From the IMG/VR virus record IMGVR_UViG_3300042483_000604: a DNA stretch of 64,000 bases; one strand, written 5' to 3'. Within the stretch, counting starts at the first letter, position 1; every line of letters starts with the position of its first letter. Position numbers and translations under genes: made by a program. Under the pieces are notes generated by a model. It did not search any database and was not told the DNA's origin. It worked only from the letters and a program-made list of their open reading frames with translations. Shown here piece by piece: positions 25,234-61,871 of the stretch. Source of the DNA: a virus (lineage: Duplodnaviria > Heunggongvirae > Uroviricota > Caudoviricetes).

Positions 25234-25572
25234 TTACAAACTACCTGTTACTGGTGTATTCCAAGGAGCAGCTAAAGTTGCTGTTACTGGATTGTTTATT
25301 AAGTTGATTTGAGAATCAATGTTTGCTTTTATAGCATCCATATCCATTACTGCTTCTAACCACCCTTCTGCTTGTTCTTGAGAAATTTCTAAGAAAGGAG
25401 TAAAGTTTTCCGGGTCAGGAGCTCCTACAGATTGTGCTCCGTAAGTCTCTGCAGATGTTCCATTTTCATCAGTACCTCTATATCTCCAGTGTACTGTTGT
25501 TACTACTTTTTGCATGTCATCTTCGTTTAAGATGCAATCGAATGGACCTACAGTCCAAGTGTAATTTGTCAT
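25234..25572 (-). CDS. Conserved small phage protein (tail-fibre-region family)
   Basis: YTWTV...VVTTVHWRY...FTPFLEISQEQAEGWLE; starts 23 nt downstream of the ribozyme. Confidence 0.65.
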   Translation of the reverse strand: MTNYTWTVGPFDCILNEDDMQKVVTTVHWRYRGTDENGTSAETYGAQSVGAPDPENFTPFLEISQEQAEGWLEAVMDMDAIKANIDSQINLINNPVTATLAAPWNTPVTGSL

Positions 25573-25595
25573 AATCTATTTGTTTTTAATTTGGT

Positions 25596-25842
25596 CATCC
25601 AGAGCCGAAACTCCCAATTTGTTATCTTTATGTTTCCATAAAGTTCGGACTATATCATCACTCTTACAAGTGTCGGGCGCTCTAGCTGGTTATTAAGAGG
25701 ACTTTACCTCTCCAGTAGTCTCTGAACCTTCCTAGGATGTATCCTAAGCTTGGCTGCTGATTTTCCAATCCTCAAGATTGTTACGCTTTGGTACTTGAGG
25801 CTCTAAGGACTTTCCAGCAATTCACCCGATTTAATCTGGACG
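25596..25842 (-). ncRNA. Group I intron-type ribozyme (IA-like core), intergenic, apparently circularly permuted, no homing endonuclease
   Basis: P element GAATTGCTGGAAA; Q element AATCAGCAGCCAAG (25762-25749); R element GTTCAGAGACTA (25727-25716); S element GATATAGTCC (25656-25647). P3 TCGGGTG/CGCCCGA; P4 TTGCTG/CAGCAG; P5a CCTCAAG/CTTGAGG; P6a CTTAGGAT/ATCCTAGG; P7.1 CTGG..GAGG/CCTC..CCAG; P8 CACTT-GTAA-GAGTG; P9 CTTTATG-GAAA-CATAAAG; likely omega-G at 25615. Confidence 0.9.
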
Positions 25843-25850
25843 TTTTGTTA

Positions 25851-26513
25851 TTATAAATATGGTTGTATTAAATTAATATAAAATTCATCTCCTCTACTAT
25901 TAGAAGCTACTGTATATGTTTTTTCACCTGTGTTGCTTATAGTTACCTGTATATCTATAATACCTGCTCCATAATTACTTGATAAGTACTTATCTTCATA
26001 TCCAATAAGACGACCTTTGAAGTCGTAAATAGGGATTCTATCAACAGGTTCTCCTTGAGATTCACTTAAAAGAGTGTAGTTATTTAATCCTGTTTTTGCT
26101 GCTGATGATTTTTCGTACAGCCTATATGCACCTTTATCTACGGTTTGTCGACCTCCGTTACGTCCTCTTTGAGTCATTTTATTTCTAACTGCAAAATATT
26201 TATATGTATTTGTATCTTTTACTACATCTGTTCTCTCTCTAAATACTATATTTGATGCAAGGTTTGCATCTGATATTGCTGATGCACGGTCTTCTCCTGT
26301 TACTACTATTTTGTTACGTGACAAGATTGCATAAGGGAGTGTTACGAATTGATTTGTTCTTGAATCAAATGCCGGAGTTGTTCCGTTTGGATCTCTTAGG
26401 TCGTAGTAAATTACTGCTCTGTCTCTTGTAGTAAATCTACTCTGTACCTCTACTTTTACTTCTGTAGCAGTTCCCCTATTTACTACTGCAAATGCTTGTA
26501 TTTTCTGTATCAT
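25851..26513 (-). CDS. Hypothetical protein
   Basis: Open ORF in the fibre region; no recognisable motif. Confidence 0.55.
   Translation of the reverse strand: MIQKIQAFAVVNRGTATEVKVEVQSRFTTRDRAVIYYDLRDPNGTTPAFDSRTNQFVTLPYAILSRNKIVVTGEDRASAISDANLASNIVFRERTDVVKDTNTYKYFAVRNKMTQRGRNGGRQTVDKGAYRLYEKSSAAKTGLNNYTLLSESQGEPVDRIPIYDFKGRLIGYEDKYLSSNYGAGIIDIQVTISNTGEKTYTVASNSRGDEFYINLIQPYL
25852..25859 (-). promoter_or_regulatory. TATTTATA candidate promoter directly upstream of the ribozyme
   Basis: Overlaps the stop codon of 25851..26513 and lies 9 nt before the first paired nucleotide of the ribozyme. Confidence 0.5.
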
Positions 26514-28470: not shown

Positions 28471-28812
28471 TTATCTTAATTCTTCCATTGGTTTAGTCCA
28501 CTCTTCAGTTGATAATATATGAAGAATTTCTTCATGAGTATACTCTGTATCACCTTCTTGGTAAATATTTGGTCTTCCGTATACCCCTGCTTCTGTAGTA
28601 CATACTTCAGGTTCTCCTGTTTCTGCATTTATAAATTCAGTTTGACATGTAACCGGTACTTCTATAATTTCATACTTAATAAAAGTCTTAGTACCATCTA
28701 CCGATAGTCTTAAACTCTCTGGTGATGATTCTAATACTTGATTGAAATCAATCGATCCTGTTGCTGTGGTTGGTATTATTAACCATCTTCTATTTGGAAA
28801 TTGTGTACTCAT
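28471..28812 (-). CDS. Hypothetical protein
   Basis: ORF with IDFNQVLESSPESLRLSVDGTKTFIKY...YTHEEILHILSTEEW. Confidence 0.6.
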   Translation of the reverse strand: MSTQFPNRRWLIIPTTATGSIDFNQVLESSPESLRLSVDGTKTFIKYEIIEVPVTCQTEFINAETGEPEVCTTEAGVYGRPNIYQEGDTEYTHEEILHILSTEEWTKPMEELR

Positions 28813-28824
28813 ATATAATAAATA

Positions 28825-30093
28825 TTAACTTAAGTTGAATCTTGTTTTATAATGTAAATAATTCTGTCTTAACTCAGATGCTGAAAGTGTTCTGTTGTAG
28901 TGTTTAAATACAGGTATCTCTCCCTGCCATGGACTTCCTCCTAAATCTGCTCCTACCCAGTACCTATCTCCTCCTGTAGGGCTAATTGAATTACTGTGAA
29001 TCGATACATCGTTTCCTACCTTATTTCCATTTACATAAAATGAAATAATATTACTTACCCTATTTACTACAATTGCCATGTGGTAGTACTGTGTTGTTGT
29101 TGTTGCAACAAATCCTCCGTCTTGAAAATGCAAGTACTGGTTACCGCCGTAGTTTAAGAAAAGACATCCCTGTCCTGTACTGTAGTAGTTATGTACCCAT
29201 AGATACCCTGCTAAACTATCTCCCCTAGACTCTAGTAAGCAATGTCCAGAAGTTTTTGACTGCTTCATTACACATTCAAGGGTAAAATTACTAGTACCCA
29301 TTCTATAAGCTGTAGGATTACCTGCTGCAATATAATCATTCGTACCATCGAAAGTCATTTGTGCATTTGAATCAAAAGATACGTTTGTTAGATCTATTGT
29401 TGAATTTCCTACCAATGGTAAAAGTCCTTGTGTTACTGAACGGGTAGTCCCTGATGGTATTATTTGCTTAGGAGGTCTTATTGTACTTCCAGGAGTTATT
29501 GCTATAGCAGCTATTGATACTTTATCTGCTACATTATAGTTATAGTACCATAATCCTGTATATCCTTTAACAGCAGTTCCTCCTACTGTAAATGTATTCC
29601 AAGCATGAAACCATCCATCTCCTAGGGATTCCATTTTATTTGTATCCAATAATCCATACTCTGTTATATATGATTCCCCACTTGTATATTGATAGTGGTA
29701 CATAAAATTAGGATGTGTATATCCTGAACGTGTTTTGAATATAATTTGATAAGTATATGTTTGGCCGGGAGTCCATATGGGACTGTTGAAACCTCCTGTA
29801 TAGTTAAATAAATTAGGGCAGCATGCATTTCCTGAAGCTGAGTTATTAATTTCAATGCTCTGCACATTAACTGTTCCTAATGCTGGTATATTTACAGTTT
29901 CAGCATATCCGTTAGTTTCAAAAAATACACCAGGTGAGTATGTAGTAAGGCTGTATCCGTTATAGTTCCTATTAACTCCTGTTGTTATGTTAGTACCTGG
30001 CTGTCCAATATAACTATTTCTAAAATCTGCTACATCGTAAGCAAACACCGATCCTGATGTGACTGTTTTTCCGTATCCTTGTGCTACTGCCAT
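28825..30093 (-). CDS. LamG/concanavalin A-like domain virion protein
   Basis: FDGTNDY...YYHMAIV...FYVNG...WQGEIPVFKHYNRTLSASELRQNY. Confidence 0.8.
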   Translation of the reverse strand: MAVAQGYGKTVTSGSVFAYDVADFRNSYIGQPGTNITTGVNRNYNGYSLTTYSPGVFFETNGYAETVNIPALGTVNVQSIEINNSASGNACCPNLFNYTGGFNSPIWTPGQTYTYQIIFKTRSGYTHPNFMYHYQYTSGESYITEYGLLDTNKMESLGDGWFHAWNTFTVGGTAVKGYTGLWYYNYNVADKVSIAAIAITPGSTIRPPKQIIPSGTTRSVTQGLLPLVGNSTIDLTNVSFDSNAQMTFDGTNDYIAAGNPTAYRMGTSNFTLECVMKQSKTSGHCLLESRGDSLAGYLWVHNYYSTGQGCLFLNYGGNQYLHFQDGGFVATTTTQYYHMAIVVNRVSNIISFYVNGNKVGNDVSIHSNSISPTGGDRYWVGADLGGSPWQGEIPVFKHYNRTLSASELRQNYLHYKTRFNLS

Positions 30094-61832: not shown

Positions 61833-61871
61833 AGATATTAAATGTTTTTAATAAATATACAAAAGTATATA

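Follow-up and report, generated by a model that had tools for sequence, protein, structure and literature searches.

A predicted guide-first group I ribozyme cassette between two late genes of an uncultured phage

Results

Gene context and catalytic core

The window, by which we mean the whole 64,000-nt stretch of viral DNA analysed here (IMG/VR record IMGVR_UViG_3300042483_000604), belongs to an uncultured phage of lake-water metagenomes, of which it represents the late (tail) region. Its genes lie on the minus strand, among them the tail genes for a fibre with an S74 chaperone domain, the sheath and the tube, and all features of the locus described below are on this strand. A 272-nt cassette (25860-25589) containing a ribozyme is located between a 220-aa ORF, which ends at its own stop codon (25853-25851), and a DUF7936 gene (25234..25572), which is complete with its own ATG at 25572 and encodes a 112-aa protein matching positions 1-99 of 103 in Pfam PF25590 and positions 2-101 of 102 in phrog_7802. 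The A-rich native leader of the DUF7936 gene (25573..25588) is common to ribozyme-free relatives. The ribozyme thus interrupts no gene, since both flanking genes are complete; no pair of exons to be joined by splicing was found, and the neighbours are intact in element-free relatives. No homing endonuclease domain was detected in the neighbouring genes, and the cassette contains no ORF.

The Rfam group I model RF00028 matched 25890-25626 at 96.9 bits (cut-off 50; model positions 1-253), and it was the only one of the Rfam models, which include a separate model for GIR1, to match the window. For comparison, relatives were retrieved from viral and metagenome collections using two sequence patterns, and Flavobacterium phage immuto was retrieved using BLAST; 23 distinct variants entered the layout comparison and 16 sequences the MAFFT/RNAalifold alignment. 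The relatives scored 76.9-93.9 bits with RF00028. The core, comprising P3-P9 (25626..25829), carries a P7.1/P7.2 insert between P7 and P3′, a position at which an insert is typical of the phage IA2 subgroup. Judged from its sequence, the element is a predicted group I ribozyme of an IA2-like subgroup. Compensatory changes were found by RNAalifold in each of P3, P4, P6, P7.1, P7.2, P8 and P9 across the 16 sequences, and the core is 97-100% identical to those of the window's three closest relatives. The nearest core sequences are the S-PM2 psbA intron and introns of uncultured phages, with 78-81% identity over ~115 nt.

The core ends with P9 (25643-25626), followed by the linker AUAACAAAUU (25625-16) between P9 and G25615. 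The latter, the 3′ splice-site guanosine (omega-G), forms with the two preceding uridines the element at 25615..25617, in which U25617/U25616 pair with A25644/A25645 as P9.0. Across the 16 aligned sequences (MAFFT), J7/9 has A, C or U as its third base, and in every sequence this base is complementary to the U, G or A found two positions ahead of omega-G; the covariation implies that docking of omega-G continues to be selected for.

A guide upstream of the core pairs with a substrate downstream of omega-G

The guide CGUCCAGA (25835..25842) pairs with UCUGGAUG at 25603-25596, a stretch that includes the predicted first-step cleavage site U25597/G25596 (25596..25597). At this site U25597 forms a G.U wobble with G25841, and C25842 pairs with G25596. 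Re-reading of the sequence upheld the positions given in the initial annotation for omega-G (G25615), the exon (25614-25597), the wobble (U25597.G25841) and the guide (25842-25835). Omega-G consequently precedes the 5′ splice site, G25615 being 18 nt upstream of U25597, and the same order was found in all 23 variants. Their common layout is N-GUCC-N immediately before J/P3, then P9.0 and omega-G, a short segment and finally N-GGAU|N. No P1 or P2 hairpin was found 5′ of the core in any of the 23 variants, and an own 5-mer substrate within 78 nt upstream was likewise absent from each of them.

The pairs flanking GUCC/GGAU vary in a way that retains the helix. The base before GGAU is paired with the guide in 23/23 variants (A:U in 8, U:A in 8, C:G in 6 and G:C in 1), and the base after the cut is paired in 19/23; either count was reached by 0/20,000 shuffles, a test that overstates significance and independence because the relatives share ancestry. 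Within the alignment, the position before GGAU shows four pair types and none is broken in the 16 sequences, which is hard to explain from the sequences without real guide:substrate pairing. When no structure was supplied, RNAalifold placed the guide:substrate helix outermost (columns 3-8 with 252-257; 16 sequences). The cleavage-site wobble is G.U in 15 of the 16 aligned relatives and A-U in one. These observations bore out the rewired topology originally proposed, through both covariation and a helix predicted de novo. The 8-bp P1 that had been drawn from the window stands in its inner, covarying part; its two outer pairs are not retained across relatives, being present in 13/23 and 9/23 variants, counts close to those averaged by shuffles (8.8 and 10.6).

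GUCC/GGAU itself (alignment columns 4-7 and 253-256) is invariant in 22 of the 23 variants, the exception being L134, in which AUCC yields A-U at the wobble. P5, P6, P7.2 and P8 change freely while GUCC/GGAU stays fixed. Ancestry alone explains this invariance poorly.

If the 220-aa gene ended in an ordinary group I intron, or in the relic of one, the downstream complementarity would have to be read as P10 or as chance. A weak upstream P1-like hairpin in the Rfam alignment and the overlap of the element with the stop codon of the upstream ORF speak for this. The Rfam P1 columns are, however, marked as non-canonical, the upstream substrate is missing from 23/23 variants and both flanking genes are complete; moreover, P10 would not be expected to end in a conserved G.U or to lie 12-13 nt beyond omega-G, as this pairing does, and a core conserved at 97-100% is not what a relic would lead one to expect. 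We regard this explanation as largely refuted and give it a very small residual probability.

Predicted two-step reaction

We tentatively favour a self-contained, accessory guide-first ribozyme that would react in two steps and release a small RNA ring as a by-product, and we give this reading close to an even chance of being correct. From 5′ to 3′, the predicted element starts with a promoter-like box and the guide, continues with the core and omega-G, and ends with an 18-nt segment (hairpin and GGAU), the cut site and a short tail. The guide would pair with UGGAU|G downstream of omega-G, and in step 1 a free guanosine nucleotide (GTP in the cell) would attack after U25597. The downstream message would thereby acquire a non-templated G followed by a 24-nt A-rich leader that is near-native; the distance of 24 nt between the cut and the ATG at 25572 (25596-25573) holds as originally proposed. 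In step 2, omega-G would dock via P9.0 and the 3′-OH of U25597 would attack the G25615-G25614 bond, giving an 18-nt closed dumbbell (5-bp stem with UUCG and GGAU loops) and a ribozyme ending in omega-G. The main effect would be removal of the ribozyme from its own message, an equivalent of splicing for an intergenic element that carries its own substrate.

We infer both steps from the layout: with omega-G placed before the cut site, the two transesterifications of established group I chemistry lead to a ring and to a downstream RNA tagged with a non-templated G. On this model a cut at U25597|G25596 is likely and ring formation is plausible, while a function for the ring is unsupported. To our knowledge, an 18-nt ring is far below the size of any circle made by a group I ribozyme and, if made, would be the smallest natural circular RNA. 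Among the roles first suggested for the reaction was GTP sensing, which is unlikely on general grounds because guanosine cofactor sites saturate well below cellular GTP.

The segment between omega-G and the cut site

The segment predicted to form the ring, GGAGUUUCGGCUCUGGAU (25597..25614), consists of a 5-bp hairpin and GGAU. The hairpin comprises G25614.U25601, G25613-C25602, A25612-U25603, G25611-C25604 and U25610.G25605 with a UUCG loop, and the 18-mer folds at -3.9 kcal/mol (ViennaRNA) with GGAU left single-stranded. Taken alone, the hairpin of the 18-mer is no better than chance (z -1.4; 15/200 shuffles fold equally well), and the segments of most relatives also fold no better than their shuffles. 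The stem nevertheless shows compensatory changes, with GAGU/GCUC in the window, GUGU/GCAC in L134 and UUGU/GCAA in L141, and the loop changes from UUCG to UACG in the segment of L002. It is because of the compensatory changes in relatives, rather than its own fold stability, that we judge the hairpin to be real, and the GAGU-UUCG-GCUC hairpin of the initial annotation is retained on the ViennaRNA fold together with L134 and L141. Its supposed competition with P1 survives in reduced form: the overlap exists and amounts to the single shared base U25601.

The segment is 18 nt long in 11 variants, 17 nt in 2 and 19 nt in 3, that is, 17-19 nt in 16/23, and in 9 of 16 folds the hairpin starts immediately after omega-G and reaches the base that precedes GGAU. 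The remaining 7/23 variants have segments of 44-69 nt with extra hairpins, so that, as far as these sequences go, the segment length is not strictly fixed. One of the long segments, in a TARA contig (L123:9880-10192), reaches 69 nt; a second GGAU and a duplicate of a P9-like hairpin lie within it, which gives the appearance of an internal duplication of part of the 3′ domain. In sequence, no part of the element is less conserved than the segment (61-94% identity to the three closest relatives, versus 97-100% for the core). The question of whether the circle is conserved in homologues therefore has a divided answer, with length largely maintained and sequence unconserved beyond GGAU. If closed, the ring is modelled as a dumbbell and would have a 5-bp stem, a loop of 3-5 nt and a GGAU loop.

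A helix spanning omega-G and alternative reaction routes

The 3′ tail of the cassette (25589..25596) provides a further pairing, in which C25594 C25593 A25592 A25591 can pair with U25617 U25616 G25615 G25614. This helix, which the initial annotation did not list and which reads UUGG/CCAA in the window, joins the bases around omega-G to bases 2-6 after the cut, and in relatives it averages 5.7 bp compared with 4.9 in shuffles (0/2000), a difference whose significance is overstated by the shared ancestry of the relatives. It could hold omega-G off the guanosine site until step 1 is complete. It also competes with P9.0 and could trap the RNA in an inactive state.

Hydrolysis at the 3′ splice site followed by attack of omega-G is a known route to full-length intron circles. 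Applied to the cassette, the bond after omega-G would be hydrolysed and the omega-G 3′-OH would attack U25597|G25596, removing a linear 18-mer and leaving the ribozyme attached to the downstream message. Besides this precedent, the helix spanning omega-G would bring the two sites together; yet a structured ribozyme would be left on the leader with no evident gain and nothing specifically supports the route, which we hold to be very improbable.

Another alternative stops at the first step: guanosine-dependent cleavage after U25597 would be the reaction, step 2 would be rare or absent and no meaningful ring would form, with omega-G, P9.0 and the hairpin persisting as folding aids or as a tether of the substrate to the guide. 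P1 is indeed the best-supported feature, the seven variants tolerate 44-69 nt between omega-G and the site, and most members have the helix that sequesters omega-G. A P10-like pairing for step 2, in which the bases just upstream of the guide would meet those that directly follow omega-G, was also sought, and nothing consistent was found. Against cleavage alone stand the P9.0 covariation, which extends to 16/16 sequences of the rewired family, and the tight segment length of 17-19 nt in 16 variants, and an engineered analogue works without P10. We consider a first step without a second unlikely, but give it appreciable weight.

Cassette boundaries, promoter-like box and dispensability

The 5′ edge of the cassette is marked by the box ATATTTAT (25853..25860), likely a promoter element, which overlaps the final codons and the stop codon (25853-25851) of the 220-aa ORF. 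Of the 16 copies of this box in the window, 14 are on the coding strand; most copies lie 13-31 nt before an ATG and several directly after a terminator-like hairpin. In most relatives the box is found 4-12 nt before the guide. We infer from this placement that ATATTTAT is likely a phage promoter box. A role as RNA structure, pairing with the linker before omega-G, was considered and set aside, as it was inconsistent across clades and a promoter fits better. The motif (G)TATATTTAT occurs before late genes on the minus strand at 61858, 56072, 49040, 45973, 45005, 40185, 28825, 24797, 22612 and 22023, among others, in many cases directly behind terminator hairpins and 13-31 nt ahead of the ATG. 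It is likewise a likely promoter box of the phage, similar to the Bacteroidota -7 element TAnnTTTG.

Between phages with flanking genes of 74-81% identity, the cassette (25860-25589) retains 94-99% identity, a difference that could reflect recent transfer instead of selection for activity. Two close relatives, L163 and L164, have empty sites next to the same DUF7936 gene (92% and 89% protein identity), and the homology of the window to these ribozyme-free sequences resumes at 25588/25587. No group I match was obtained in a relative genome that is 96% complete. These sequence comparisons show that the cassette is dispensable, and we read it as accessory.

A second guide-first copy was observed on the minus strand of L002 (L002:7138-7404), with ~86% core identity, a 19-nt segment and AGGAU|A as its site. 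It precedes a homologue of the window ORF 28812..28471, and at the same position (28812-28825) the window has a 12-nt gap with the ATATTTAT box only, so that the two loci appear as a filled and an empty site. In the genome of Flavobacterium phage immuto, the annotated 44-aa CDS immuto26A_226 (MW353175; L001:2965-3099) lies wholly inside the ribozyme core and is probably not a gene.

The downstream context of the cassette differs among relatives. In about ten variants an ATG follows after 11-27 nt, in five lineages a terminator comes directly after the cut, and others have a second promoter box. The initial annotation had proposed that the first step re-heads the tail-gene mRNA, which may apply at this locus; with a terminator straight after the cut in five lineages, it is not a universal role. 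The presence of the same DUF7936 gene in close relatives without the ribozyme also argues against re-heading as a general role.

RNA contigs and possible products acting in trans

The RNA data examined were assembled contigs of four metatranscriptomes, built from 31-mers, in which an 18-nt ring cannot show up. These contigs, which are blind to rare or small products, showed no back-junction joints and no pile-up of ends. At least two contigs bridge both sites uncut, and one ends at 25597 with 3 additional unaligned bases. A contig of run X20, a freshwater metatranscriptome, is identical to the window from 25780 to G25615 and diverges exactly after omega-G. It continues with 41 nt of foreign sequence including the T-arm-like GGUUCGAUCC. 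This flank had no exact match in viral or genome contig collections, and only scattered 11-mers were found in the collected loci; possible sources are a related tRNA-gene intron, another cassette and ligation at the RNA level. As RNA evidence, the contig hints at 25615 and 25597 are weak.

The products themselves might be what the cassette is for. On a host or phage partner, the nuclease-resistant dumbbell ring would then act as a signal, an anti-defence molecule or a decoy, for instance for a defence protein that binds RNA; alternatively, the ribozyme, once freed, would act in trans on NGGAU RNA, cutting and tagging it with its exposed guide and the omega-G 3′-OH. Five lineages are stand-alone, consisting of box, ribozyme, cut site and terminator with no downstream message, and compensatory changes preserve their P1, for example between immuto and L004. 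The near-invariance of GGAU/GUCC (22/23, with AUCC in L134) while other helices vary would also fit, as would the X20 contig joining omega-G to a foreign T-arm-like sequence. That contig, however, would be explained equally well by a related element that has a different flank, close relatives do without the cassette, and no target or partner was identified. The ring sequence outside GGAU is unconserved (61-94%), which argues in particular against a decoy or signal recognised by its sequence. We consider a cassette maintained for such products improbable. The 16S rRNA 3′ tail, if it contained GGAU, was considered as a trans target and dropped, since this end may read GGAAC, not GGAU, in Bacteroidota.

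Discussion

The self-contained two-step cassette that we favour has partial counterparts among known ribozymes. GIR1, from the twin-ribozyme introns of Didymium and Naegleria, is derived from a group I ribozyme, is located upstream of an ORF and caps the 5′ end of the downstream mRNA with a lariat; it has neither P1 nor a G.U site, its branching occurs 3 nt after omega-G and it works without a guanosine cofactor. Like GIR1, the phage ribozyme lies upstream of an ORF and would cut on its own 3′ side, creating a new mRNA 5′ end. Unlike GIR1, it has a conserved P1 with G.U and matches the standard group I model only, which sets it apart from that class. The ORF-less phage IA2 introns (T4 td/nrdB type; S-PM2 psbA) share the P7.1/P7.2 insert with the cassette, and conventional relatives fetched with the same pattern obey the same P9.0-omega-G rule. 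These introns have upstream P1 (usually also P2) hairpins and restore a reading frame, whereas the cassette has neither feature.

The closest match in design is artificial. Engineered Tetrahymena ‘self-targeting and splicing’ (STS) constructs have the same order of parts, namely guide, core, omega-G, insert and a target ending in U with a G.U wobble, and they circularise in vitro with P1 alone (PMC10457212). They are man-made, belong to subgroup IC1 and carry inserts of hundreds to thousands of bases, whereas the phage cassette is natural and IA2-like with a 17-19-nt insert. In nature, the corallimorpharian mitochondrial intron ND5-717 has a permuted precursor and yields a circular exon-containing RNA, described by its authors as the first natural case; its permutation arises from transcription of a circular genome round a giant intron, and its exons encode ND5 (PMC6545197). 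The phage cassette, by contrast, is 272 nt long, has a non-coding substrate of its own and leaves genes uninterrupted.

RNA circles are also made by natural circularly permuted group II introns, bacterial self-splicing elements with a rearranged domain order (PMC8637638). They belong to another ribozyme class with lariat/branch-point chemistry. In the Clostridioides difficile c-di-GMP-II riboswitch/group I ribozyme, located in a 5′ leader, the site chosen for guanosine attack determines the 5′ end and thereby the translation signals of the downstream ORF (PMC9481103; PMC3649979). That ribozyme has the conventional order, joins two exons into a ribosome-binding site and is controlled by a ligand; no aptamer was seen in the phage cassette. 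The literature searched contained no guide-first group I ribozyme occurring naturally in phages or bacteria; this layout was represented there only by engineered constructs (STS/PIE designs) and the one coral mitochondrial intron.

If the proposed chemistry is correct, a natural counterpart of the design that engineers use for RNA circles exists in phages of aquatic, Bacteroidota-type hosts, as a portable module of 270 nt that contains its own substrate and fits any intergenic spot. A guanosine-dependent cut of an operon message would then be a third natural fate of group I ribozymes beside splicing and lariat capping, and, unlike any nuclease cut, it would leave the downstream RNA with a triphosphate-bearing 5′ end. 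The 17-19-nt hairpin-GGAU segment could also yield a minimal natural scaffold for very small RNA circles. With Flavobacterium phage immuto as a cultured relative, the question is testable in vivo.

Guide-first layouts were also observed in two further lineages. A second IA2-like lineage, in the viral contigs L009, L020, L026 and L076, has the guide UGCCUG, a site reading xGGU|A and a 19-20-nt segment with a covarying hairpin and a CUGU loop. In a third lineage, in the viral contigs L060, L087, L089, L092, L098, L059 and L071, the guide is GCCC(U/G) and the site, (A/U)GGGU|C or |A, follows ~60-110 nt after omega-G; the predicted cut falls 2-3 nt before the ATG, and a Shine-Dalgarno-like AGGAGG is located upstream of the whole ribozyme. 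Conventional relatives with the same core were found in 23S rRNA genes on the metagenome contigs L140 and L118, where the 3′ exon begins with CCUAAGGUAGCGAAAUUCC, and in tRNA-Leu-like genes (L011, L016, L018 and L085). These 23S rRNA and tRNA-Leu-like introns likely show the ancestry of the cassette core.
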